Sequence record: MT446412.1
DNA: 64,000 nt
Origin: Escherichia virus TH41
Direction: 5' to 3' (one strand)
The stretch's first letter is position 1, and the number at the start of each line of letters is the position of its first letter. The translations under genes and the position numbers were made by a program. The notes beneath the pieces were generated by a model. It had not been told where the DNA came from. It searched no databases and was given only the letters and a program-made list of their open reading frames with translations. Of this stretch, positions 1-60,190 are shown in pieces.

Positions 1-86
1 TGAGTATAAGAAAGCAAATTAGGACGGGCGACCTGGTTGGCCGCCGTTAATGTTGATTCGTGAATTAGTGCGTTAATCTTTTGCAT

Positions 87-1367
87 TTACGCCTCATAAA
101 TGATTGGCGGAAGTTTAACACCGAGCAGATAAGACATATTGCTCTGACCGGCCATTAAATCCATATTGGTTGCATCGATAATACGAGCTTCTTTATCGTC
201 TTTAGCAACGGTGTACGGGTTAGCTGAAAGTGCATAACGAACCATCAGAGAGATAGCCGGTTGCAAACTGTCAGGGTCCACAATGACCTTAAACGCGCCC
301 ACGTGTTCTTCATCATCTAAGTCCAGGCCTTCGGTATAAGGAGCATAGAAGATTGAGCCTACGACTTCATTTCCGCCATAATTTTCTTTAACGCCAACGG
401 TTACATAATCTAATGGACTGTTAACATCACAGAATACAGGAAGACCATTAATCAAATAACCGTATGCTGTTTCAGGAAGCCATTGTTCATCTTCAGGTTT
501 ATGCTTCAGCCAACCAGAACCGGCCAGCATAGCAGCAACACGGCTAGAGGCAACAACAAAGGTACCGGAATAAGATGTAGTTTTCTGAATCTCGGAGTTC
601 ATTTCGCAAACCAGTTCGTACAGTTTACGTGCGCCTTCTGGAGCTGCATCATATGTTAAATCGATGACGCCATTGTCAGAAACCCCAGTTACTTTATAAC
701 GCTTGGAAACGGTAATAAGAGACTGAAGAACATCTTTGTTAATTTCATCTGCCATAATAGTGGCAAGCAAGTCTTCCAGGAAAGCAGGAGCATTAAACCC
801 ATTTGCTTCCATATCCTGAGCAAGCTCAACAGTTAATGCAGTTTTCAATTTACGTGTTTTAACCGGAGCATTCCATTTGTTAACCTGGAATACGGCATTG
901 CTAATTTCAACATCACCGGCTTCAAATTTCTCGGTGTGCGCCGCATCAGGAACCAAACGAATGGTTAATGCAATAAGACCTTCTTGCAGAACATCGGATA
1001 ATACAGTTTCGGTAGTCGATGCAAACGGATTATCAACCAGAGCTTTATAAACGGTATTCTGAAATTTAATGTATCCGCCTTTAGCTACGGCCTGAGTTGG
1101 AGTTGTAAATTCCGGAATTGTTTCACGGTCTTTTGAACCAACTTCACCACCGTAAACGGCACCGGTTTGGAAACTGAATTCATTATCAGGAGTAAGATAT
1201 TTAACACCGTACAGAGCCGCAACTGGCTGGTTCGTACGTTGTTCAGCGATAATATCGCGGTAAATCAATTTGGTTGTAGCGCGGGTCAAAGCAACAAGAT
1301 TCGGGCGGCCCAATGAGTTGCTGGTAGTAGTAGTTGACTCGCGCAGTAATTTGTTAATCTTTGCCAT
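87..1367 (-). CDS. 24: Head vertex protein gp24
   Basis: 426-aa ORF; N-terminus MAKINKLLRESTTT... and C-terminal region closely resemble T4 gp24 as I recall it; gp23 paralogue; synteny next to 23. Confidence 0.85.
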   Translation of the reverse strand: MAKINKLLRESTTTTSNSLGRPNLVALTRATTKLIYRDIIAEQRTNQPVAALYGVKYLTPDNEFSFQTGAVYGGEVGSKDRETIPEFTTPTQAVAKGGYIKFQNTVYKALVDNPFASTTETVLSDVLQEGLIALTIRLVPDAAHTEKFEAGDVEISNAVFQVNKWNAPVKTRKLKTALTVELAQDMEANGFNAPAFLEDLLATIMADEINKDVLQSLITVSKRYKVTGVSDNGVIDLTYDAAPEGARKLYELVCEMNSEIQKTTSYSGTFVVASSRVAAMLAGSGWLKHKPEDEQWLPETAYGYLINGLPVFCDVNSPLDYVTVGVKENYGGNEVVGSIFYAPYTEGLDLDDEEHVGAFKVIVDPDSLQPAISLMVRYALSANPYTVAKDDKEARIIDATNMDLMAGQSNMSYLLGVKLPPIIYEA

Positions 1368-1393: not shown

Positions 1394-1401
1394 TATTTAT
1401 A
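1394..1401 (-). promoter_or_regulatory. T4-type late promoter box TATAAATA upstream of gene 24
   Basis: Exact TATAAATA on minus strand about 27 bp upstream of the gene 24 start codon. Confidence 0.5.
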
Positions 1402-1407
1402 AAAGTT

Positions 1408-1437
1408 GTTTACAACCAGATTAAGATAAGACATAAT
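1408..1437 (+). promoter_or_regulatory. Early-type promoter (GTTTAC -35, cATAAT -10) for ORF 1479
   Basis: GTTTAC at 1408-1413, 18-bp spacer, CATAAT at 1432-1437, followed by conserved leader tccatactgagttaac also found before other plus-strand genes. Confidence 0.45.
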
Positions 1438-1478
1438 GATTCCATACTGAGTTAACAAACAAAACCCTGGGGTCCAAA

Positions 1479-1760
1479 ATGAACAAAGCAACTTTCCTTC
1501 TGAACACCTTTAAAAATCTGGAAATTGAAGTTATTGCATTGGTCAACAAATACCCGAATGGTGTTAATGGTAATGCTCTGAACAAACTAGTTAAAAAATA
1601 TGAAAACTTAGCATATGACACTGATTTCTGGTGGAATGGTAATTATTCTACTCACACTAAAGATAAAAATGGTAACTGGTTGAAACTTCAAGAAAACAAT
1701 GTTAACTTCAGAGACCTCATCAAGCGCCGGGTAGAAGTTCATTTAAATGGTATGGTATGA
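1479..1760 (+). CDS. Hypothetical small protein (93 aa) on opposite strand between late genes 24 and 23
   Basis: ATG start, own promoter-like sequence upstream and terminator downstream; no recognisable motif. Confidence 0.5.
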   Translation: MNKATFLLNTFKNLEIEVIALVNKYPNGVNGNALNKLVKKYENLAYDTDFWWNGNYSTHTKDKNGNWLKLQENNVNFRDLIKRRVEVHLNGMV

Positions 1761-1770
1761 AAACAAGAAA

Positions 1771-1792
1771 GGGACCTCAAGGGTCCCTTTTT
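1771..1792. terminator. Bidirectional rho-independent terminator
   Basis: gggacc-tcaag-ggtccc hairpin flanked by A-run upstream and T-run downstream; sits after ORF 1479 (plus) and after gene 23 (minus). Confidence 0.6.
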
Positions 1793-1810: not shown

Positions 1811-3370
1811 TTAAATTCCTTTAACATATACGCGGCGGAAGTAACCGTTCAAGCCGAGGCTATTAACGATGTCCGGCATACCATTCTGAATGCGCTTGGT
1901 CGGAGCCTGAGCAGCAGGGTCAGCAAACGGGTTGATACCGATACCGTAACGGGTTTTGAAGCCCATAACCGGCTGGAAGTTTTTCGGGTCAGAGCCACGC
2001 AGCGGGGTCAGTGCAACATATGGTGCGTAGTAGATACCAGCATCCATTTCGTTAGCGCCTTTGTAACCGATGGTGAAGTAATCTGCACGAGCATACTGGT
2101 CGATATAGACACGGTATTTGCCACCCAGAACACCAGCGAACACAGCTTTAGTGGTGTCAACGTTGAAACCTTTACCCAGACCCTGAGCAGCATAACTTAC
2201 AGAAGTATCAACAGCAGCCAGTACGTTAACTACGTTACGGGAAGCGATGATGAAGTTACCTGCACCACGACCGGTCTGACGAGCGATTTCAGCGGCTTCT
2301 TTATCAATCTGGAACAGTAAAGCTTTGAAGCTTTCACCAGCCCAACGAGCACCACGGATATCAATCGGGTCCTGGAAGTCAAACACACCAGCTTTAGCGC
2401 CAACGGTGTTGGTCATACCAGATTTACCAACCTGTGCGGAGTAGTTAATCCAATCGATAACTTCGCGGTTGATTTCCAGCATAATTTCGGTAGCCAGAAT
2501 ACCACTCAATTCGGCATCAGCATCCATACCGTGAACAGCGCGCAGGTCCTGTGCCAGTTCGATGGAGTAGCTTGCTTTCAGCTGACGGGATTTAGCTTCG
2601 ATAACTTGTTTGTCGATGCGGAAGCCCATTTCGTTCCACGGGTTATCAGAGGAACCGTTAAAACCTTCTTGCAGTTCGGCGATGGAGGTAGCCATACCTT
2701 CAGCCAGTTCAGCCAGCTGACCAGCTTCAACCAGAGCGGTAACAGCAGCGTCAAGTTTAGCAGCGTCAGTAGCAGCAGCATCAACAGTTACAGCTTCAAC
2801 AGCCTGGAAGTGTGCAGAACCAGTTGCTTCGAAGAAGTGAGAATAAATTTTACCAACTTCCAGAACTTTGCTTGCAGCCAGTGCTTCAAAAGTCTGAGCA
2901 GCGCCCTGACCAGAGAACATAGCGTTCGGAGCATACATCGGGTGGAAAGCTTCTTTAGCACCAGCAGCGACAGGGTCTTTACCGTAAACTGCACGCAGGG
3001 CAAATACCTGGCCAGTCGGGTTGTTCAGAGGCTGTACGCCACAAATATCAAACGCAATCAGATGCGGGATAGCACGACGAACCATACCCATAACTGCCGG
3101 CCCAATCTGAGTTACTGCACCAGAGGTCTGGCCAGCGGCGATATTGGTAGCATCATAACCATGGTCACCACCGATTTCAGCTTCGGTCAGGAAAGAACCA
3201 AATGCTTCGGAGATTTTTTCATCACGGTATTCAGGAGCGGTCAGGATATCTTGTTCCTGGTTTTCAAAGATTTTAGCGATGATAGCTTGTTTAGAAGCAC
3301 CAACGATTTCAGGAAGAGCTTCGTTTTCCAGCAGAGCGGACCATTTTTGAACTAATGCATTCTTTTTCAT
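1811..3370 (-). CDS. 23: Major capsid protein gp23
   Basis: 519-aa ORF; long stretches identical to T4 gp23 as recalled (e.g. GSFLTEAEIGGDHGY, AELSGILATEIMLEINREV, C-terminal YFRRVYVKGI). Confidence 0.95.
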   Translation of the reverse strand: MKKNALVQKWSALLENEALPEIVGASKQAIIAKIFENQEQDILTAPEYRDEKISEAFGSFLTEAEIGGDHGYDATNIAAGQTSGAVTQIGPAVMGMVRRAIPHLIAFDICGVQPLNNPTGQVFALRAVYGKDPVAAGAKEAFHPMYAPNAMFSGQGAAQTFEALAASKVLEVGKIYSHFFEATGSAHFQAVEAVTVDAAATDAAKLDAAVTALVEAGQLAELAEGMATSIAELQEGFNGSSDNPWNEMGFRIDKQVIEAKSRQLKASYSIELAQDLRAVHGMDADAELSGILATEIMLEINREVIDWINYSAQVGKSGMTNTVGAKAGVFDFQDPIDIRGARWAGESFKALLFQIDKEAAEIARQTGRGAGNFIIASRNVVNVLAAVDTSVSYAAQGLGKGFNVDTTKAVFAGVLGGKYRVYIDQYARADYFTIGYKGANEMDAGIYYAPYVALTPLRGSDPKNFQPVMGFKTRYGIGINPFADPAAQAPTKRIQNGMPDIVNSLGLNGYFRRVYVKGI

Positions 3371-3391: not shown

Positions 3392-4210
3392 TTAAGAAAT
3401 TCGTGATGCTGCGAGAGCAGACAAGTCCGCGAAGGACAGGGTAGGCTTGGCGCCTTTTTCTTCAACTGCTTCTGAAATGTAATTCAGTGCCGCAGCATCG
3501 TCTACATTTTTATTTATAGCGGCTTCGGTGATTGGTTTGTTGGTGGGTTCTACCTGACCTTTAACCATTTCAACGATAGCGCCAATTTTGGTACCGAATG
3601 CATCAGAGTATTCCATGCCTTCTACCAGAGAACCAACTTTTTCTTTTTGGGATTCAGTCAGGTCTTTAGTTGCTTCAGTCAACGCAACTTCACGTTGGAC
3701 ATAATTGATATAAGCATCACGCTTAGAAACTTCTTCGAACAGGCTAGCGGTTTCTTCTTTCTGTTCAGCCAGTTCTTCCTGCATTTCTGCGACAACATCG
3801 ACAGATTCTTCCGGAACAACAACGTTGTGCTCAACGAACAGTTCTTTCATGCCGGTGAACATGGATTCGAACAGGTCAGCTTTAATGCCACGGTCGACAG
3901 CCAGTTTATTTTCAGCAAGCCATTCTTTAGCAACGTGGTCCAGGAATTTAGCTGCAGATTCTTTCAGTTTTTTCTCTGCTTTTTCGTCGGATTCTTCTTT
4001 ATTCTTTTCGACTTCTTCTTCAGCTTTTTCAGCGATGGCGTGAATGTGAGATTCTGCCAGTTTGATGGCGTGTTGCTTGACGGTAGCTTCGAATACAGTG
4101 CCGAAGGTAGCTTTCGCTTCCGGGGACAAATTAACTGATTCGAAAATACTATCGAGAGCAACGGAAGCATCGATATTCTGAGCTTCAGAAATGAGTTGTT
4201 CTTTAAGCAT
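3392..4210 (-). CDS. 22: Prohead core scaffold protein gp22
   Basis: 272-aa acidic, Glu/Lys-rich ORF; N-terminus MLKEQLISEAQNIDASVALDSIFESVN resembles T4 gp22; synteny. Confidence 0.85.
   Translation of the reverse strand: MLKEQLISEAQNIDASVALDSIFESVNLSPEAKATFGTVFEATVKQHAIKLAESHIHAIAEKAEEEVEKNKEESDEKAEKKLKESAAKFLDHVAKEWLAENKLAVDRGIKADLFESMFTGMKELFVEHNVVVPEESVDVVAEMQEELAEQKEETASLFEEVSKRDAYINYVQREVALTEATKDLTESQKEKVGSLVEGMEYSDAFGTKIGAIVEMVKGQVEPTNKPITEAAINKNVDDAAALNYISEAVEEKGAKPTLSFADLSALAASRIS
3511..3518 (-). promoter_or_regulatory. Late promoter box TATAAATA upstream of gene 23 (inside 3' end of gene 22)
   Basis: Exact TATAAATA on minus strand about 140 bp upstream of the gene 23 ATG. Confidence 0.4.
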
Positions 4211-4239
4211 TTTGTAGTCCTGTTGTTAAGATATACATT

Positions 4240-4247
4240 TATTTATA
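4240..4247 (-). promoter_or_regulatory. Late promoter box TATAAATA upstream of gene 22
   Basis: Exact TATAAATA on minus strand 30 bp upstream of the gene 22 ATG. Confidence 0.5.
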
Positions 4248-4881
4248 ACGTCTTTAAAGCCTCTGCGAGAGCCATAAAGGCGTCATCGGCACTGGTATCG
4301 GCAACAGCCGTTTGTGATTCTGTAATCTGCTTTGGTTTGACCCAAGCGTCCGGAGCACTTGGCCCCCATACTGCGTCTACTCCAACCGTCAATTTAAAAC
4401 CTTCATTAACGATGCTATAACCTTTTGCTGATTTAGTCAGGGAACCGAGTCCACGACTAGATACGCCAGGAATCCAACCTGCTCTTATATTCGCAGCAAG
4501 TTTATCACCTGGACCATGGTCGCCTTCGATAATACGCGCGCGGCCATATACATCATTCCCTTTCCACCACATTTCCTCGATAATAATTGCTGCCTGCATA
4601 GGGTCAACGTTTGCGCGAGGTGGATGGTTTAATTCTCCAAGAGACTGCTTGGTTTCAACCTGTTCGGCGATATAGTCCGCAACGGCTTTTTCCAAAATAT
4701 GTTTAGGATAAAGTCGTTTATTACGGTTAACAACTTCAGCTTGTAGGAAAATACCTTCAATATAAAGTCCTGGCTTTAAACCGCTGCTGGAACCATCATG
4801 AGATTCCAACATCGGTACACCATCTTTAATTTCGCCCGGTTGACCCCAGTGTTCGATTAGTAACTCTGGTTTCTGTTCCAT
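4243..4881 (-). CDS. 21: Prohead protease gp21
   Basis: 212-aa ORF, same length as T4 gp21 as recalled; synteny between 68 and 22; 1-nt overlap with gene 68 stop. Confidence 0.85.
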   Translation of the reverse strand: MEQKPELLIEHWGQPGEIKDGVPMLESHDGSSSGLKPGLYIEGIFLQAEVVNRNKRLYPKHILEKAVADYIAEQVETKQSLGELNHPPRANVDPMQAAIIIEEMWWKGNDVYGRARIIEGDHGPGDKLAANIRAGWIPGVSSRGLGSLTKSAKGYSIVNEGFKLTVGVDAVWGPSAPDAWVKPKQITESQTAVADTSADDAFMALAEALKTL

Positions 4882-21429: not shown

Positions 21430-21456
21430 AGGTAAGCCTCGTTATTGATATAGCTA

Positions 21457-21464
21457 TATTTATA
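21457..21464 (-). promoter_or_regulatory. Late promoter box TATAAATA upstream of gene 9
   Basis: Exact TATAAATA on minus strand about 28 bp upstream of the gene 9 ATG. Confidence 0.5.
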
Positions 21465-21474
21465 GAATAAAAAA

Positions 21475-21490
21475 GGGACCCGAAGGTCCC
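21475..21490 (-). terminator. Rho-independent terminator after gene 8
   Basis: gggacc-cgaa-ggtccc hairpin followed by T-run on the minus strand, immediately after the gene 8 stop. Confidence 0.6.
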
Positions 21491-34790: not shown

Positions 34791-35090
34791 ATGCAAACTT
34801 TTCATGAATTTTTGGTAGAAAACAATTACCTGGCAGAAGCAAAAACCTGGCCTCTGGGTCTTCAGAAGAAAAACACCTACAAATGGGTTGACTTCAAAGG
34901 TAAAGGCGACGCTGAAGACTTTGACCAGCTGCGTAAAAATGGTTATACCTTCCTTGACTCTAACTATAACAAAATTACCTCTTTTAGTCAGAAGTCAAGC
35001 ATTGCCTTCATTGAAACTGGTAAGAACTCTCCTAAAGATATCACTGACGACTTCACCGCTTATGGTGTAATTCGTGGTTCAAAAATGTAA
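34791..35090 (+). CDS. Internal-protein-like protein with CTS N-terminus
   Basis: Starts MQTFHEFLVEN; paralogous to 48952-49215 (shared ...AEDF...RKNGY...IAF...DDI...F..YG.I.G.K). Confidence 0.6.
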   Translation: MQTFHEFLVENNYLAEAKTWPLGLQKKNTYKWVDFKGKGDAEDFDQLRKNGYTFLDSNYNKITSFSQKSSIAFIETGKNSPKDITDDFTAYGVIRGSKM

Positions 35091-35119
35091 TGTACACGAT
35101 GGGATAGTTGCAGTATAAT
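35091..35119 (+). promoter_or_regulatory. Early promoter / stem-loop cassette
   Basis: TGTACA -35-like, 17-bp spacer, TATAAT; gggat...atccc inverted repeat flanking -10; conserved leader atcccatcaactactggag. Confidence 0.45.
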
Positions 35120-35145
35120 TATCCCATCAACTACTGGAGCTACTA

Positions 35146-35424
35146 ATGAAAACTTATCAAGAATTTATTAACGAATCAATTAGTCACCCGGATATGCTGG
35201 AAGACCTGAAAGGACATCTGATGGTTAAGGCCAAACCGGTTGATGGTGGCGCATTTGAGTTGTTTCTTGTTAAAGGCGAAAACGGTCCTGATAACAAGAA
35301 AGTTTCAGCAATGATGTTGACTAAAGGTTACAAAGTCAGTTCTTCCTGGAATGCTCCATTCACTTACGCGGTAAGCCCTCGTGAACTGAAAAAAGTTAAA
35401 GCTGGACAATATACAAAAATTTAG
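35146..35424 (+). CDS. Internal-protein-like protein with CTS N-terminus
   Basis: Starts MKTYQEFINES. Confidence 0.65.
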   Translation: MKTYQEFINESISHPDMLEDLKGHLMVKAKPVDGGAFELFLVKGENGPDNKKVSAMMLTKGYKVSSSWNAPFTYAVSPRELKKVKAGQYTKI

Positions 35425-35478
35425 TGTACGTGATGGGATAACTGTAGTATGATTATCTCATCAACTACTGGAGACCAC

Positions 35479-35733
35479 ATGAAAACTTATCAAGAATTTA
35501 TTACTGAATCTGCAAATGCAAAAGTTGAGTTTGCTTATGTTGGTTCGCCGCGTGGCAGTTTTTCCAATGAGGAATTCCGTCGTTCACTGGACAATTTCAT
35601 GCAGTTAAGTGCTGAAGTATCGCATGATGGTCGTTATGACATCGTTACTATTAGCGGTTCTGAAGACCTTATCAAAAAGTGGCACAAGCAGAAAGATGTT
35701 GAGATGCGTTACTATCGTATCCCTAAAAAATAA
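35479..35733 (+). CDS. Internal-protein-like protein with CTS N-terminus
   Basis: Start placed at internal ATG giving MKTYQEFITES; promoter cassette upstream. Confidence 0.65.
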   Translation: MKTYQEFITESANAKVEFAYVGSPRGSFSNEEFRRSLDNFMQLSAEVSHDGRYDIVTISGSEDLIKKWHKQKDVEMRYYRIPKK

Positions 35734-35790
35734 GTGTACTTTTAAATGGGATAGTGTATGATTATCCCATCAACTACTGAGGAGAATAAA

Positions 35791-35976
35791 ATGAAACGTT
35801 GCGAATTAATTAGAAATGTTACTGCCCTTGTTGCTGTTACCACTTTTGGTTTTAGCATGTTTGCTGGCTTTATGTTGAATATGCTTTCAACTTCTGAGAA
35901 TATAATCTCTTTAGTAGTTGCATTTTTAATTGGTTCAATCTCTTTCGTTATGGATAAAATCTCTAAAGGTGAGTAA
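35791..35976 (+). CDS. Small hydrophobic (likely membrane) protein, 61 aa
   Basis: Two hydrophobic segments; GAGGAG SD; promoter cassette upstream. Confidence 0.5.
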   Translation: MKRCELIRNVTALVAVTTFGFSMFAGFMLNMLSTSENIISLVVAFLIGSISFVMDKISKGE

Positions 35977-37236: not shown

Positions 37237-37312
37237 GGCCCTGTAGCTCAATTGGTTAGAGCATCCGGCTCATAACTGGCAGGTTTCCGGTTCAAGTCCG
37301 GATGGGGCCACC
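37237..37312 (+). tRNA. tRNA with CAT anticodon (Met or Ile2-type)
   Basis: Hand-folded cloverleaf: 7-bp acceptor stem (two G-U pairs), D-arm GCTC/GAGC, anticodon loop CTCATAA, T-loop TTCAAGT, discriminator A. Confidence 0.75.
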
Positions 37313-37389
37313 CGGGGTGTAGCTCAATTGTATAGAGCAACGGTCTTCTAAACCGTAGGTTGTGGGTTAGAATCCCACCACCCCGACCA
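37313..37389 (+). tRNA. tRNA-Arg (anticodon TCT)
   Basis: Hand-folded cloverleaf: perfect 7-bp acceptor stem, anticodon stem ACGGT/ACCGT with loop CTTCTAA, T-arm GTGGG-TTAGAAT-CCCAC, encoded CCA. Confidence 0.85.
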
Positions 37390-38925: not shown

Positions 38926-38962
38926 ATACCCCGAATAAATTTGAAATTTTCTTCAAAAAGTA

Positions 38963-38992
38963 GTGTACATCCAAATTGTCTGGGTGCATAAT
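38963..38992 (+). promoter_or_regulatory. Early promoter cassette (GTGTAC -35-like / CATAAT -10)
   Basis: GTGTAC, 18-bp spacer, CATAAT, then conserved leader gattccatactgagttacac. Confidence 0.4.
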
Positions 38993-39043
38993 GATTCCAT
39001 ACTGAGTTACACACTGAATCAAACAAAACTTTGGAGAAATAAA

Positions 39044-39469
39044 ATGAACTTTCTGACCCTGACCTCTGCATTCTCTGTTACCCGCATCACTAACAAAATG
39101 GTTGCTGACGAAGTATGTGAAATCTGCATTCGTGAAGATGCACTTATCCATCTGACTTCAACCCAGATTGTTGCCATTGCCAAGTCCCTTAATTCTGAAC
39201 TGAAGGTAAACACCAAACAGTCAAAAGAATCTATCATTGAATTAATCCAAGCTGAAATGATTGAATTCCCAATTGAAGAAGTTAAAGAAGAAAAAATCCA
39301 GTCCAAATCTGGTAACGCTCGTGACATTTGCTTCCAGGCATTTGCAGAAATTGATATGAATGATAATGCAGCTCGTCGCGCTCTGATTGATGTTCTGGTT
39401 ACCACCCATGATATCAAAAAGACTGTTGTTCAGTCATATGCATCCAACTTCCGCAAAGCTCAAAAATAA
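39044..39469 (+). CDS. Hypothetical protein, paralogue A (141 aa)
   Basis: C-terminal region ...NAARRALIDVLV...VVQSYASNFRK shared with the 39553 ORF. Confidence 0.55.
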   Translation: MNFLTLTSAFSVTRITNKMVADEVCEICIREDALIHLTSTQIVAIAKSLNSELKVNTKQSKESIIELIQAEMIEFPIEEVKEEKIQSKSGNARDICFQAFAEIDMNDNAARRALIDVLVTTHDIKKTVVQSYASNFRKAQK

Positions 39470-39481
39470 TTGAGAAAAGTG

Positions 39482-39510
39482 TTTTACTTCCAGATGGGAT
39501 AGTGTATAAT
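39482..39510 (+). promoter_or_regulatory. Early promoter / stem-loop cassette
   Basis: TTTTAC -35-like, 17-bp spacer, TATAAT; gggatag...tatccca inverted repeat flanking -10. Confidence 0.45.
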
Positions 39511-39552
39511 TATCCCATACTGAGTTACCAAATAAACAAACGGGAAAATAAA

Positions 39553-39996
39553 ATGAAAACTTCAAAACTGGTTAAGTATGTTAAACTGGCATTAAACAAC
39601 TCTTCTGAAGCTGAAGCACAATCCGCAGCACGTATGTTCTTCAAACGTCTGACAGCTGAAGGTATTTCATTTAACCCGGCAGTATTTGGTATCACTCGTG
39701 GCGAAGCTGCTAAACTGGCAACTCTGGCAGGTAAAATTTTTAAAGGTCTGAATGATGGACAGGTTAAACCAGAAGTTAAACCTACTCCTAAAGCTGAACC
39801 AAAAGCTGAACGTAAGGCACCTAAACGCTCCGGTATGAGCAACAAAGATTTATGCTATGATATGTTCAAAACTGTTAATATGTCTAATGGTGCTGCTCGC
39901 AGAGCTGTTATTGATATGATTGTGCGTGAGTTTGGATTCAACAAAGCATCAGTTCAGTCTTATGCTTCCAACTTCCGCAAAGAATTTGAAATTTAA
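39553..39996 (+). CDS. Hypothetical protein, paralogue B (147 aa)
   Basis: C-terminal region ...NGAARRAVIDMIV...SVQSYASNFRK shared with the 39044 ORF; Lys/Pro-rich linker. Confidence 0.55.
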   Translation: MKTSKLVKYVKLALNNSSEAEAQSAARMFFKRLTAEGISFNPAVFGITRGEAAKLATLAGKIFKGLNDGQVKPEVKPTPKAEPKAERKAPKRSGMSNKDLCYDMFKTVNMSNGAARRAVIDMIVREFGFNKASVQSYASNFRKEFEI

Positions 39997-40002
39997 TTAA
40001 AA

Positions 40003-40036
40003 AGGGGGTATACAAGCCCCCTGCTTTAAGGCATAA
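40003..40036 (+). promoter_or_regulatory. Stem-loop plus early promoter-like element
   Basis: ggggg-tatacaag-ccccc hairpin followed by CATAAT and the tccatactgagttacac leader. Confidence 0.35.
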
Positions 40037-40078
40037 TGATTCCATACTGAGTTACACAATAAAACACTGGAGAATAAA

Positions 40079-40384
40079 ATGAAATTCATCATCAACCTGG
40101 CGCTTGTTGACTTTGATAAAACTGGTAATTTCGCATCTGCTGAAAATATGATTCGTAACACCAAGTTCAAAGTGCAAGTCCAACAGGCGGTAGCAAAAGA
40201 GTTCTTTACTGATAAATTAACTAACGTTGTTAATCACCTGAATGTGCAAGTTAAATTCACTCGTGAAGCGGAAACTACTGTTGCATTTGATTTTGACTGC
40301 CAATACCATGATGAATATGTTCGCCGCATCCTGGATATTGTGTCTGATGAACTTTATTATGGTGTGCAGGAAAACAAAATCTAA
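40079..40384 (+). CDS. Hypothetical protein (101 aa)
   Basis: ORF with GGAG SD; no recognisable motif. Confidence 0.5.
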   Translation: MKFIINLALVDFDKTGNFASAENMIRNTKFKVQVQQAVAKEFFTDKLTNVVNHLNVQVKFTREAETTVAFDFDCQYHDEYVRRILDIVSDELYYGVQENKI

Positions 40385-44611: not shown

Positions 44612-45571
44612 ATGATGTTAGTTATTGGTTCTCGTGCATTGCATAACGCTGGTCTGATTGAAAGTCAGAAAATTGAAAATTCTGATTGGGACTTTATCGC
44701 TGACCAAGGTTCTTGGAACCACTTTAAAGCACGTATGTTCGGTGCTCATGTTCCTGTGGATAACCCTAACGTCCAAGCTTTTAAATGTATGTACAATGGC
44801 AAAGAAACCTATTTTGAAGCTTATATTGTCCGTGCCCTGACCAACGTACGAGAAATTACTGGTGAGCTTCAAGACGAAGATTTCACCTCAAGTTATCGTC
44901 TCCTGAAATATGCTGAAAATCATATTAAAAAAGATCGTCTTACAGGTTTTTACTGGGCAACTCCTGATATTTGTCTGGCAATTAAATTATCTCATCGTTA
45001 CCTGAAGAACAATCCATTCTTCCTGAAGACCATGAGTCATATTAATTACCTTCGCAATAAGGGTGTTGTTCTTAATGATGAACTGCAGAAAATCATGTTG
45101 CAGCGTCAGGCAGAAACACTGTCATACAGCCACCCTAAACTAGACGTGGGCAAGAAAACTTTCTTTAATGATACAATCTATACCCTTGACCATGACTCCA
45201 TCCACGAGGCTGTGGCGCTTGCTGATAAGCCTGCATATAAGTTCTATATGAAGGATGATTCAGAAGTCATGACCTCACGTGAAAAATTTGAAGCACTCCC
45301 TGATGTTATTAAACTGGCAGGGGTTTATGAAGAAGCATGTGTGCTTGCTCTGGAGCGTTCGCAGGTTCCAAATGAGTTCAATATCTCTCCATCCGTGAGC
45401 TTCCATATTGCGCTGGAAAAAGTCTGCACCTCCATTACTTCTGGATGGTTCCGTGAGTATGCCTGGGAACATTACCAGGAAGTGGTTAATATGTATAACA
45501 CTCTGGGGCGCGAAGACTATGTTAAACGCTTCAAGGCTAACCAACATTTAATTCGTCCTTTCACAAAATAA
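44612..45571 (+). CDS. Pol-beta-type nucleotidyltransferase-like protein (319 aa)
   Basis: N-terminal VIGSRALHNAG...ENSDWDFI resembles the GS-x(n)-SD-h-D-h nucleotidyltransferase motif. Confidence 0.45.
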   Translation: MMLVIGSRALHNAGLIESQKIENSDWDFIADQGSWNHFKARMFGAHVPVDNPNVQAFKCMYNGKETYFEAYIVRALTNVREITGELQDEDFTSSYRLLKYAENHIKKDRLTGFYWATPDICLAIKLSHRYLKNNPFFLKTMSHINYLRNKGVVLNDELQKIMLQRQAETLSYSHPKLDVGKKTFFNDTIYTLDHDSIHEAVALADKPAYKFYMKDDSEVMTSREKFEALPDVIKLAGVYEEACVLALERSQVPNEFNISPSVSFHIALEKVCTSITSGWFREYAWEHYQEVVNMYNTLGREDYVKRFKANQHLIRPFTK

Positions 45572-45573
45572 GT

Positions 45574-45610
45574 GTGTACATCCAAGTGGGACCATGACAC
45601 AATGGTCCCA
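45574..45610 (+). promoter_or_regulatory. Early promoter cassette with 10-bp perfect palindrome
   Basis: GTGTAC followed by gtgggaccat-gacaca-atggtcccac. Confidence 0.35.
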
Positions 45611-45630
45611 CAATCAATGAGGAAAATATT

Positions 45631-46317
45631 ATGAACAGTCCAAAAACTTTTAATTCTCAAGCTCGTGCAGTAGGCGGTTTCGCTGGTAAAATTTCTAATG
45701 ATAAAATCAAAAACGAAACTATGTTCTTCAACAGCTCATTGGCTTTCGCTTTTGACAATGGCGGTCCTATTACTCGCAGCTTTATCATGAACCTGCCGGA
45801 TGATTGGAACACTGACCAGGTTGTATTTGATTCTCGGGTTCATATGTTGATGCCTGGTTGGTATCCTGCTATCCCTGGGTATCACCATGATGATGTGCCA
45901 CGCCCGGATATTCCGGTTGGTCAACACTTTATTACTGCAGGGCAACCTGATTATGATAATCCTCGTTACCATTCTGAACATATTCTTGGTCTTGTTAACG
46001 CCGATGTGTGTCCTACTTATTTTGCAACCGGAACTGCGCAATTTAGTCAGATTCCTGAAGGCGAACTTATCTATCGCCAGTGGCATAAAGAAGTTCTGGA
46101 AAAAATTGAGTCCAATGAATTAACCAAGTGGGATGCTCCTGACCGCACGTTGCTCCAGTTTGATTGGCAGACATGGCATACAGGTTCTCGCGCAGTAAGT
46201 AATGGTTGGCGCTGGTTTGGTCGTGTGTCTCGTAATACCGACCGTGTTAAAAAGATTACAAATGAAATCCGCGTTAATGCTCAAGTATATCTGGAATTCC
46301 CTATGGAGGGCTGGTAA
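45631..46317 (+). CDS. Hypothetical protein (228 aa)
   Basis: GAGGAAAA SD; His/Asp-rich central region (GYHHDDVPRPD); no confident domain call. Confidence 0.5.
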   Translation: MNSPKTFNSQARAVGGFAGKISNDKIKNETMFFNSSLAFAFDNGGPITRSFIMNLPDDWNTDQVVFDSRVHMLMPGWYPAIPGYHHDDVPRPDIPVGQHFITAGQPDYDNPRYHSEHILGLVNADVCPTYFATGTAQFSQIPEGELIYRQWHKEVLEKIESNELTKWDAPDRTLLQFDWQTWHTGSRAVSNGWRWFGRVSRNTDRVKKITNEIRVNAQVYLEFPMEGW

Positions 46318-49217: not shown

Positions 49218-49246
49218 GTTTACTTTATGATGGGATAGTGTATAAT
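49218..49246 (+). promoter_or_regulatory. Early promoter / stem-loop cassette
   Basis: GTTTAC, 17-bp spacer, TATAAT; gggatag...tatccca inverted repeat; conserved leader. Confidence 0.45.
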
Positions 49247-49274
49247 TATCCCATCAACTACTGAGGAGAATAAA

Positions 49275-49472
49275 ATGTTAACTTATAAAGAATTTATGAA
49301 AGAAGTTAAAAAACTTAAAAAGACTTCTGGCGATGTTAAAATTGAAATCCATGGTCAAAACGTAAATGTGGTAGCGGATGGCCAGGCATTAGTTCTTTAT
49401 AGTGATAAAGACCAAGAATTTCGTGAAGCACAAAAGAAAAAATTTACCGTATGGCTTAAAAAAGCTGTTTAA
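49275..49472 (+). CDS. Internal-protein-like protein with divergent CTS
   Basis: Starts MLTYKEFMKEV; 65 aa. Confidence 0.5.
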   Translation: MLTYKEFMKEVKKLKKTSGDVKIEIHGQNVNVVADGQALVLYSDKDQEFREAQKKKFTVWLKKAV

Positions 49473-50976: not shown

Positions 50977-51555
<579 letters not shown>

Positions 51556-51556
<1 letters not shown>

Positions 51557-51590
51557 TGTACAAGCAGATTGAAATGAGTTATGATTATCC
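51556..51590 (+). promoter_or_regulatory. Early promoter cassette upstream of regB
   Basis: GTGTAC then tgattatcccatcaaacaaaaggag leader. Confidence 0.35.
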
Positions 51591-51612
51591 CATCAAACAA
51601 AAGGAGATAATC

Positions 51613-55678: not shown

Positions 55679-55720
55679 TTTACATCACCATAAAAAGGGT
55701 GTACTATTATCCCATCAACT
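55679..55720 (+). promoter_or_regulatory. Early promoter cassette
   Basis: GTTTAC and GTGTAC elements followed by tattatcccatcaactactgaggag leader. Confidence 0.4.
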
Positions 55721-55735
55721 ACTGAGGAGAACACA

Positions 55736-55939
55736 ATGAGAATTAAAAATATCAAGATTGATGCAGTTAATACTGGTGATGAGGTTGTTATCTATCTTAA
55801 TGATTATGCAATCTTTATGGACAGTGCCACTGATGAAGAAGTGGTTGAACTCTTACAGAAAGCTCCATTTGAACTGTGTGAAGAAGATGCTACCCATCTT
55901 TCATCAGCAATTTTCTCATTATCATATGTGGTGGAATAA
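55736..55939 (+). CDS. Hypothetical protein (67 aa)
   Basis: GAGGAG SD. Confidence 0.45.
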   Translation: MRIKNIKIDAVNTGDEVVIYLNDYAIFMDSATDEEVVELLQKAPFELCEEDATHLSSAIFSLSYVVE

Positions 55940-58974: not shown

Positions 58975-58997
58975 GGAACCCTTCGGGGTCCTTTTTT
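58975..58997 (+). terminator. Rho-independent terminator
   Basis: ggaaccc-ttcg-gggtcc hairpin followed by TTTTTT. Confidence 0.6.
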
Positions 58998-59010
58998 ATT
59001 TTAAAAAGTA

Positions 59011-59040
59011 GTGTACAACCAGATGGTCATGAGGCATAAT
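59011..59040 (+). promoter_or_regulatory. Early promoter cassette (GTGTAC / CATAAT)
   Basis: GTGTAC, 18-bp spacer, CATAAT, conserved leader gattccatactgagttaaca. Confidence 0.4.
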
Positions 59041-59081
59041 GATTCCATACTGAGTTAACAAATAAACAAACGGAGAATAAA

Positions 59082-59599: not shown

Positions 59600-59629
59600 G
59601 TGTACATAGTATGGGGATAGACGTATAAT
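59600..59629 (+). promoter_or_regulatory. Early promoter cassette (GTGTAC / TATAAT)
   Basis: GTGTAC, 18-bp spacer, TATAAT, leader ttcccatactgagttacc. Confidence 0.4.
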
Positions 59630-59665
59630 GTTCCCATACTGAGTTACCAAATACTGGAGAATAAA

Positions 59666-60190
59666 ATGGAAGCCAAATCAATCTTTAATCTGATTAATTA
59701 CAATAATGGTAATTTTAAATCAGAAGCACAAAGTAAGTTCTTTAATGATGTTGCTTGTGCAGGCGAGATTACAGTATCAGGTGGTCAGACTTATAAAAAC
59801 GCCTGGAACTGGATTGTGACTGTTGATTCAGTTGGTATTGTTGATGTGTATAAAAACACCAACAAAAACCGCTCTTTGTTCTGGTCAAGAGAGACTAATG
59901 CAGAATATCAAGCGGCAAGAGCAAAGAAAAATATGCCTACTGAATCTGATGTACAAAACATCAAATCAGATATCCAATATTATGATGGTCTGATTGCTGA
60001 ACAACAAGCAGTGCTTGATAAGTTCAATGAAATCAAAGCATGTAAAGAGATTCCTGAATTCATGCGGGAATCAGTTAATGAACAATACAATCTCACTTCA
60101 GAGCGTATTGAAACCTATACCAAACAAAGAGCAGAGCGCCAGGTACTCCTTCAGAAGTTTGAAGAGCGTTTAAAGACGGTTCTCGCATAA
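59666..60190 (+). CDS. Hypothetical protein (174 aa)
   Basis: GGAG SD. Confidence 0.5.
   Translation: MEAKSIFNLINYNNGNFKSEAQSKFFNDVACAGEITVSGGQTYKNAWNWIVTVDSVGIVDVYKNTNKNRSLFWSRETNAEYQAARAKKNMPTESDVQNIKSDIQYYDGLIAEQQAVLDKFNEIKACKEIPEFMRESVNEQYNLTSERIETYTKQRAERQVLLQKFEERLKTVLA

Follow-up and report, generated by a model that had tools for sequence, protein, structure and literature searches.

A 93-residue open reading frame (ORF) on the plus strand (positions 1479 to 1760, with an ATG start) was found between the capsid genes 24 and 23 of the 64-kb window, the whole stretch of DNA analysed here, where it runs opposite to both genes. It is probably a dispensable, early-expressed accessory gene located in a polymorphic slot between the terminator of gene 23 and the late promoter of gene 24 of T-even phages. 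The ORF corresponds to VR7ORF190c, JS98 orf173 and RB69ORF188c and belongs to the protein family phrog_6003. The initial annotation had described this frame together with a promoter-like element and a bidirectional terminator, and all three were found where it had placed them. The anatomy and conservation of the unit, the polymorphism of the slot, the recombination junctions and the purifying selection on the frame were all observed. The gene is already present in GenBank as a hypothetical protein and, overall, the finding is an ordinary one, as optional ORFan cassettes have been known from T4-like phages for a long time. The interval between genes 23 and 24 is documented here as a multi-cargo slot in which one conserved early promoter appears to serve the 93-residue protein, segD or both.

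The window belongs to a Gaprivervirus, a T-even phage of the VR7/SP18 type, and the DNA of the region is 98% identical to that of the Gapriverviruses TH40, pEC-M719-6WT.2, SP18 and RZ and 94% identical to that of VR7. Following the VR7 annotation, the left flank of the slot is the first copy of the capsid vertex protein gp24, 24(1) (87 to 1367, minus strand, an ORF of 426 residues), and the right flank is the major capsid protein gp23 (1811 to 3370, minus strand, 519 residues), beyond which genes 22, 21, 68, 67 and 20 are found. Directly downstream of 24(1), a second gp24 paralogue, 24(2), begins (1 to 86, minus strand); the vertex protein gene is annotated as duplicated in tandem in VR7 and JS98 too. 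Two further observations concern other parts of the window. Adjoining tRNA-Met (CAT) and tRNA-Arg (TCT) genes are located at 37237 to 37389 on the plus strand. The peptide MKTYQEFITE is encoded by the near-identical first 30 to 60 nt of five or six small plus-strand ORFs (35146, 35479, 48624, 48952, 49275 and 49482); these starts resemble the capsid-targeting sequence of the T4 internal proteins, and the ORFs may form a multi-copy and variable set of internal-protein genes.

Gene 24 is preceded by a T4-type late promoter box, TATAAATA, which was read from the sequence of the minus strand at 1394 to 1401 (plus strand TATTTATA). TATAAATA is the late promoter of T4. This box was observed to be invariant across Gaprivervirus, Dhakavirus and Mosigvirus, and it is also present at the empty slots of RB33, Roth20 and PM2. 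Seven bases separate it from the -35 box of the divergent early promoter of the ORF, where it occupies the place expected for the A/T-rich upstream element of that promoter.

The slot was surveyed in 78 IMG/VR loci fetched through the C-terminus of gp23, and the distance to the gp24 start was measured in the 61 loci where gp24 follows. The slot was found to be empty in 39 of these 61 loci (76 to 147 bp) and occupied in 22, with five different kinds of cargo, which bears out the earlier suggestion that this is a hot spot for cargo. The ORF was observed in nine loci, two of which also carry segD while seven are without any endonuclease. A SegD-like GIY-YIG gene occurs alone on the opposite strand in three loci, a GIY-YIG endonuclease with an I-TevI DNA-binding domain on the same strand in two, and a homing endonuclease of about 500 residues on the opposite strand in five (phrog_3339, E = 7.5e-131), so that homing endonucleases of three families are found in 10 of the 61 loci. 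The fifth kind, an ORF resembling the Sf6 tail-needle knob or fragments of it, is found on the same strand in three loci. We noticed that in L060, L061 and L059 (IMG/VR 638275429, 638275431 and 2974724359), whose gp23 C-terminus is about 74% identical to that of the window, the slot is occupied by a same-strand ORF of 297 residues, in which an Sf6 tail-needle-knob domain accompanies phage tail-fiber repeats, or by C-terminal fragments of it with 68 to 90 residues.

Empty slots of 77 to 90 bp were also observed in RB33 (Tequatrovirus), Roth20, PM2 (Mosugukvirus) and Marfa, and Klebsiella and Pectobacterium relatives are among the phages with an empty slot. In these slots, the short spacer aaaacaact separates the gene 24 late promoter from the gene 23 terminator. 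Since this late promoter also occurs in the window and a terminator with a near-identical stem follows the ORF there, the inserted material extends from about 1402 to 1760 and comprises the promoter, the leader and the ORF. The initial annotation took the ORF to interrupt a minus-strand late operon. This part did not hold, because the empty slots already contain the gene 23 terminator followed by the gene 24 late promoter, and the cargo thus sits at the boundary of two late transcription units and not within an operon.

The terminator is a bidirectional intrinsic element at 1766 to 1792, formed by a stem-loop with T-runs on both strands, and is common to the ORF (plus strand) and gene 23 (minus strand). 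Its 12-bp stem folds at -17.0 kcal/mol on the plus strand and -15.9 kcal/mol on the minus strand (z about -2.5). The sequence found 3' of the ORF is aaaacaagAAAGGGACC-TCAA-GGGTCCCTTT, and a near-identical stem, AAAGGGACC-CGAA-GGTCCCTT, follows gene 23 in the empty slot of RB33. Because it is present at empty sites, the element at 1766 to 1792 is the resident terminator of gene 23 which is used from both sides, and its assignment to the cassette was rejected. The cassette had been called self-contained with a bidirectional terminator; such a terminator is indeed present but it belongs to gene 23 and is not the cassette's own. A second terminator-like element, at 21454 to 21481, has the same GGGTCCC/GGGACCC stem in the inverted orientation (repeat I5).

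The ORF is a genuine gene and not a chance reading frame, because its product matches the phrog_6003 profile over the full length (E = 3.6e-47, residues 1-90 against positions 1-90 of 90), the frame is found in 237 phage records, its dN/dS against VR7 is 0.17 and its AlphaFold2 model is confident (mean pLDDT 93.7, pTM 0.80). A tblastn search showed the 237 records to be distributed over three genera with 35-100% identity and an intact frame, and the carriers are almost all phages of Escherichia and Shigella. Identity is at least 90% in 31 of these records (Gaprivervirus), 60-80% in 83 (Dhakavirus, for example JS98 orf173) and below 60% in 123 (Mosigvirus, for example PhAPEC2 gp220, which is likened to RB69ORF188c in its own record). 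Phages RZ and DK-13 encode a protein that is 100% identical to the one in the window, and identity falls to 94% with VR7ORF190c, 61% with JS98 orf173 and 36% with RB69ORF188c / PhAPEC2 gp220. These orthologues, annotated as hypothetical proteins, show no substantive difference from the window gene. At every locus examined (VR7, JS98, PhAPEC2 and two metagenomic T4-like contigs), genes 23 and 24 flank the orthologue, which runs on the opposite strand. The dN/dS value places the ORF under purifying selection. Between genera it was observed to change about 30 times faster than gp23 (dN of 0.30 versus 0.010 between the window and JS98), an excess which may come partly from a codon-bias constraint on gp23 and not from allele exchange. 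The GC content of the ORF is 33.7% versus 43% and 49% in its flanks, and its composition is therefore foreign relative to them.

These data bear on the view that the ORF is a non-functional or decaying remnant which is kept only because the slot tolerates insertions. The ORF is dispensable, as TH15, T4 and RB33 illustrate, no function was found for it, and it is AT-rich and encodes an Asn-rich product, all of which would suit a remnant. However, a decaying frame would not be expected to stay intact in 237 records across 35-100% identity with a dN/dS of 0.17, conservation extends to its promoter, Shine-Dalgarno sequence and start codon, and its predicted fold is both confident and reproducible. 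The remnant reading thus appears to be largely refuted by the conservation data, and we regard it as highly improbable.

The family is a small one, as a profile search gave nine matches among 1.84 billion representative proteins. Two of the nine, P0025 and P0026, are long repeat proteins and were taken as spurious. P0023 (160 residues, on a 701-bp ENA contig) contains 31 residues near-identical to the Dhakavirus form of the ORF joined to unrelated sequence; it was set aside as a probable artefact of the reading frame or of a chimeric assembly. Remote members of phrog_6003 (29-34% identity) were observed elsewhere, in small same-strand gene arrays of non-T4 phages (Acinetobacter phage ABPH49 and a metagenomic contig). 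No paralogue of the ORF was found within the 64-kb window. A search of the literature by the ORF names and the accessions of the family returned nothing relevant, and the matches to 'ORF188c' proved to be genes of 44RR and RB49, not RB69.

The predicted promoter of the ORF is a sigma-70-type early promoter, TTTACA-17-CATAAT, on the plus strand at 1409 to 1437, which matches the consensus in 10 of 12 positions and is preceded by the A/T-rich sequence TTTATTTATAAAAG. A promoter scan alone did not rise above chance, with two sites found versus 1.6 expected in shuffled sequences. The promoter becomes convincing because of its conservation across genera, its occurrence in a six-copy repeat and the homologous T4 site in front of segD, a gene of the early class. 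The -35 box is conserved in Gaprivervirus, Dhakavirus and Mosigvirus, where an invariant block reads TTATTTATAAA-(A/G)(G/A)-TTGTTTACA, and it is followed in all three by a -10 box at the same spacing of 17 nt. The -10 box of JS98 and PhAPEC2 is TACTAT after TG, at the same position and spacing as in the window. The corresponding sites are TTTACA-17-TATTAT in T4 and TTTACA-17-TATAAT in TH15. The possibility that the ORF has a late or middle promoter was rejected, as the region read (1380 to 1478) contains neither TATAAATA on the plus strand nor the TGCTT core of a MotA box.

Downstream of the promoter, the leader of the ORF is predicted to be unstructured (z = +2.8), and a Shine-Dalgarno-like CTGGGGT was read from the sequence at 1467 to 1473 of the plus strand, 6 nt before the ATG. 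Its counterparts at the equivalent position are GGAG in VR7 and GAGGAG in JS98 and PhAPEC2, and the start codon is conserved.

The promoter and leader together form a cassette on the plus strand (1392 to 1463) which is one member of a six-copy repeat family and resembles the promoter early stem-loop (PeSL) elements considered below. The other copies of this family, D1, are located at 38947, 39465, 39992, 51540 and 58995, and family D5 adds a site at 59623. The 72-nt copies are 61-85% identical to 1392-1463, with the closest at 58995 (85% over 72 nt). All copies are on the plus strand, and those that were checked precede small plus-strand ORFs. From the -10 box onward the window matches the repeat of its own genome (CATAATGATTCCATACTGAGTTAACAAA), unlike JS98 and PhAPEC2, which read TACTATAGAC. 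Therefore, the regulatory region is itself a mosaic, with a -35 box common to JS98, PhAPEC2 and T4 and a -10 box and leader that match the genome's own repeat. Further repeated families of early promoters and leaders (D1, D3 and D5-D8) were noticed in the window at 35080-35800, 38947-40084, 45559-45633, 49218-49277, 51540-51611, 55679-55738, 58995-59066 and 59623-59671. Many of these cassettes contain a stem-loop, either GGGATA...TATCCC across the -10 box or GGGGG...CCCCC across the -35 box, and they are PeSL-like and located before small plus-strand ORFs.

We propose that host RNA polymerase with sigma-70 would start at TTTACA-17-CATAAT soon after infection, and that the transcript would consist of the unstructured leader and the 93-codon ORF and would stop at the gene 23 terminator, which it meets from the other side. 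No late gene would be read antisense from the ORF promoter, and the late transcription of genes 23 and 24 would be unaffected.

The T4 genome offers a parallel for the timing of this expression. The initial annotation placed an optional insertion of the homing-endonuclease type in the corresponding T4 interval, and segD is in fact located on the opposite strand in exactly the interval between genes 23 and 24. The T4 late promoter abuts AAGTTATTTACA-17-TATTAT, with an upstream TG, directly before segD. This promoter-like site (about 107254-107282 of NC_000866, minus strand; 1254-1282 in the T4 locus L005) is homologous to the ORF promoter in its position and its -35 box. A time-resolved omics study of T4 from 2022 placed segD in the class 'early-RNA_middle-Protein' and detected its protein (PMC9697503, supplement files 4-6), while a 2010 review of T4 mobile elements stated that no segD promoter had been found and expected vanishingly low transcription (PMC2988022). 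The conserved TTTACA-17-TAT(T/A)AT is likely to be the answer to this puzzle, and such a site agrees with the omics study, which detected the protein and assigned the RNA to the early class. We infer that the ORF is expressed early as well, from the type of its promoter and from the homologous promoter before T4 segD, a gene whose RNA is classed as early.

A comparison of close relatives revealed how the cargo changes at this position. Phage TH15 (MT446392), also a Gaprivervirus, is 100% identical to the window over a stretch that begins at the gp24 start, includes the late promoter and ends with TTTACA. Beyond this hexamer it diverges, with 17 nt followed by TATAAT, GAGGAG, a SegD-like gene of 219 residues and its own version of the terminator (2500-3300 of its locus, L095). 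TH15 represents a natural swap of cargo, segD for the ORF, with the left junction right after the -35 hexamer. Because TH15 carries segD instead, members of the genus can dispense with the ORF, at least in this slot. Presence in all relatives together with a defined morphogenetic role, which the initial annotation had named as the observation that would speak against optional cargo, was not what we found: the ORF is absent from T4, RB33, PM2, Marfa, Roth20 and, at this position, TH15, and no morphogenetic role is known for it.

Both genes were observed in tandem in two Dhakaviruses, L020 (IMG/VR 2974735671) and L091 (IMG/VR 2974741249, a 155,101-bp contig), where the SegD orthologue is 56% identical to T4 SegD. 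The segD ATG is located 3 nt past the stop codon of the ORF, within the promoter-terminator unit of the ORF and without a Shine-Dalgarno sequence of its own, an arrangement which suggests that segD is translationally coupled to the ORF. The slot thus exists in four states, empty, P-ORF-T, P-ORF-segD-T and P-segD-T, with one -35 box common to those that are occupied. In addition, the metagenomic contig that carries P0017 (L012, ENA ERZ27245996 k123_278436) has two gp24 copies and a gp23 of the Dhakavirus/Gaprivervirus type (dN 0.06-0.07), and its ORF allele (4001-4273) is of the Mosigvirus type (dN of 0.29 to PhAPEC2 versus 0.68-0.76 to the window, VR7 and JS98). Because gp23 and the ORF of this contig give conflicting relationships, the comparison points to allele exchange at the slot.

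We propose that the cargo passes between phages by homologous recombination. The left junction would be located in the conserved block of the late promoter and -35 box, and the right junction in the stretch that separates the cargo from the 3' end of gene 23. Such junctions would therefore allow one slot and one -35 box to carry the ORF, segD or the ORF together with segD in different relatives. In the window, the repeated early-promoter cassette of the genome itself would have taken the place of the -10 box and leader.

The recurrence of segD in these comparisons could also mean that the ORF is functionally tied to SegD-type endonucleases, as a helper, a regulator, an immunity factor or a landing pad which they parasitise. 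The slot serves mainly as a hot spot for endonucleases, of which three families occur in the 22 occupied loci; segD of the two Dhakaviruses, placed directly behind the ORF, would use the ORF promoter; and T4 and TH15 retain the same -35 box before segD. Against such a tie, seven of the nine survey loci with the ORF have no endonuclease, as is also the case in VR7, JS98 and PhAPEC2, and segD occurs without the ORF in T4, TH15 and the loci L026, L035 and L042. Furthermore, the distant family members are located in small-gene arrays of non-T4 phages, and the protein has no similarity to SegD. The helper or immunity part of this proposal has no direct support, and its landing-pad part is compatible with a dispensable accessory gene in a polymorphic slot. 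We therefore consider a functional tie to SegD unlikely and retain the accessory gene as the preferred explanation.

The product of the ORF has a mass of 10.9 kDa and a pI of 9.4, contains no cysteine and has asparagine at 17 of its 93 residues. A basic character was found to be conserved, as the pI is 9.2-10.1 in 18 of 19 family members though their identity drops to about 30%. The invariant residues of the family are M1, K3, F6, N30-G31-N32 in the loop between helices 1 and 2, A45 and Q71. The AlphaFold2 model consists of a helix (residues 3-24), a second helix (31-48), a hairpin (52-61/67-71) and a third helix (77-91), and an independent BFVD model of a family member with 32% identity superposes on it at a TM of 0.86-0.90. 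The product is thus predicted to be a basic, soluble and cytoplasmic protein with a compact helix-helix-hairpin-helix arrangement and no catalytic signature.

The earlier description of the cargo as a protein of no recognisable function which is not endonuclease-like agrees with all of our searches. The protein has no match among the Pfam, NCBIfam and PADLOC profiles, and phrog_6003, a family of unknown function, was the sole match in PHROGs. A sequence-profile search of the PDB gave no match below E = 0.1 and returned designed helix bundles only, the best Foldseek match in the PDB has E = 2.9, and Foldseek against BFVD recovered a family member only. BLASTP against T4 SegD revealed no similarity (E = 3.1). 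A homing endonuclease would be expected to combine a GIY-YIG, HNH or other nuclease domain with a DNA-binding domain; neither was found, and 93 residues are too few to hold them. A winged-helix reading of the N-terminal helices, which the sequence had suggested, was not supported by the fold searches and was dropped.

Any activity of this protein we infer in its entirety. Our best guess is that it acts early as an accessory binder of nucleic acid or of an acidic partner from the host or the phage, and that it serves in host takeover or counter-defence. This role is considered the most likely one because the family is basic, diverges fast, would be expressed early, is optional in its presence and is restricted to Escherichia and Shigella phages. 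Any specific version of it can be put forward only tentatively.

One narrower version is that the ORF encodes a counter-defence protein directed at a specific E. coli anti-phage system. A small, non-enzymatic protein behind a predicted early promoter would be suited to this task, and the quick evolution between genera, with dN of 0.30 versus 0.010 for gp23, would be in keeping with it. The ORF is moreover optional within the genus, its allele phylogeny conflicts with that of gp23, and it is nearly confined to Escherichia and Shigella phages, with the slots of the Klebsiella and Pectobacterium relatives being empty. However, the same features are common to many phage accessory genes with other roles, no likeness in sequence or fold was found to solved structures or to viral models outside the family, and our search gave no literature on the family. 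A dedicated counter-defence function is therefore possible but somewhat doubtful, and the broader reading of an accessory binder is preferred.

A bolder proposal, which we regard as rather improbable, is that the protein founds a new fold family of early effectors in T-even phages that infect Escherichia, binds host nucleic acid or a defence component and competes as an allele with segD for a single promoter-terminator 'socket'. If this were true, phages would use the 23/24 socket, which is located within the genome's most conserved region, as a small platform on which adaptive cargo is exchanged. Apart from this proposal, a well-folded, basic and phage-restricted family without structural relatives is a reasonable candidate for screens of host takeover and counter-defence.

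The accessory-gene unit of the window can be compared with three known systems. PeSL cassettes, described in RB49/phi1, PST and nt-1, are strong sigma-70-like early promoters with A/T-rich upstream regions and stem-loops (Arbiol 2010, PMC2839356; Comeau 2014, PMC4122927). They are repeated before ORFans and act as recombination points (PMC2839356, PMC4122927). The window likewise has a sigma-70-like promoter that is A/T-rich upstream and precedes the Shine-Dalgarno sequence and ATG of a small ORF, and its motif, conserved over 72 nt where roughly 70-100 bp is typical, is found at several sites of the genome, six copies in all. The replacement junctions are located inside the motif, as seen from the break after TTTACA in TH15 and from the -10 box and leader of the genome's own repeat, and the unit appears to be transcriptionally insulated. 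However, the motif at 1392-1463 contains no stem-loop (-2.6 kcal/mol, z = +0.34), and the sole stem-loop of the unit is the resident gene 23 terminator. Sister copies with a stem-loop were observed at 39465 (-8.2 kcal/mol, z = -2.8), 39992 (a G5/C5 stem) and 35734. The window copy also differs in its location between the core late genes 23 and 24, outside the hyperplastic regions. Thus, the motif at 1392-1463 is PeSL-like and not a full member of the PeSL class.

The lambdoid morons described by Hendrix and colleagues (PMC2839356) share with the window a single gene with its own promoter and a terminator at its end, which lies on the opposite strand between two neighbours. The GC content of the window ORF is below that of its flanks and the ORF is absent from relatives, as in a moron, with the qualification that its terminator pre-exists at empty sites. 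T-even phages are virulent, so the window phage has no prophage expression, in contrast to the lambdoid morons. The exchange at the slot also appears to proceed through conserved flanking sequence and not by illegitimate recombination, with the terminator already in place.

The T4 segD locus provides a third comparison. The cargo of the window differs from segD in that its 93-residue product lacks a nuclease domain and does not resemble SegD, and self-mobility is neither known nor expected for it. Both cargoes occupy the same slot on the same opposite strand, with the gene 24 late promoter abutting TTTACA on one side and the stop codon of the cargo abutting the gene 23 terminator on the other. 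Furthermore, segD and the ORF replace one another or stand in tandem in close relatives.
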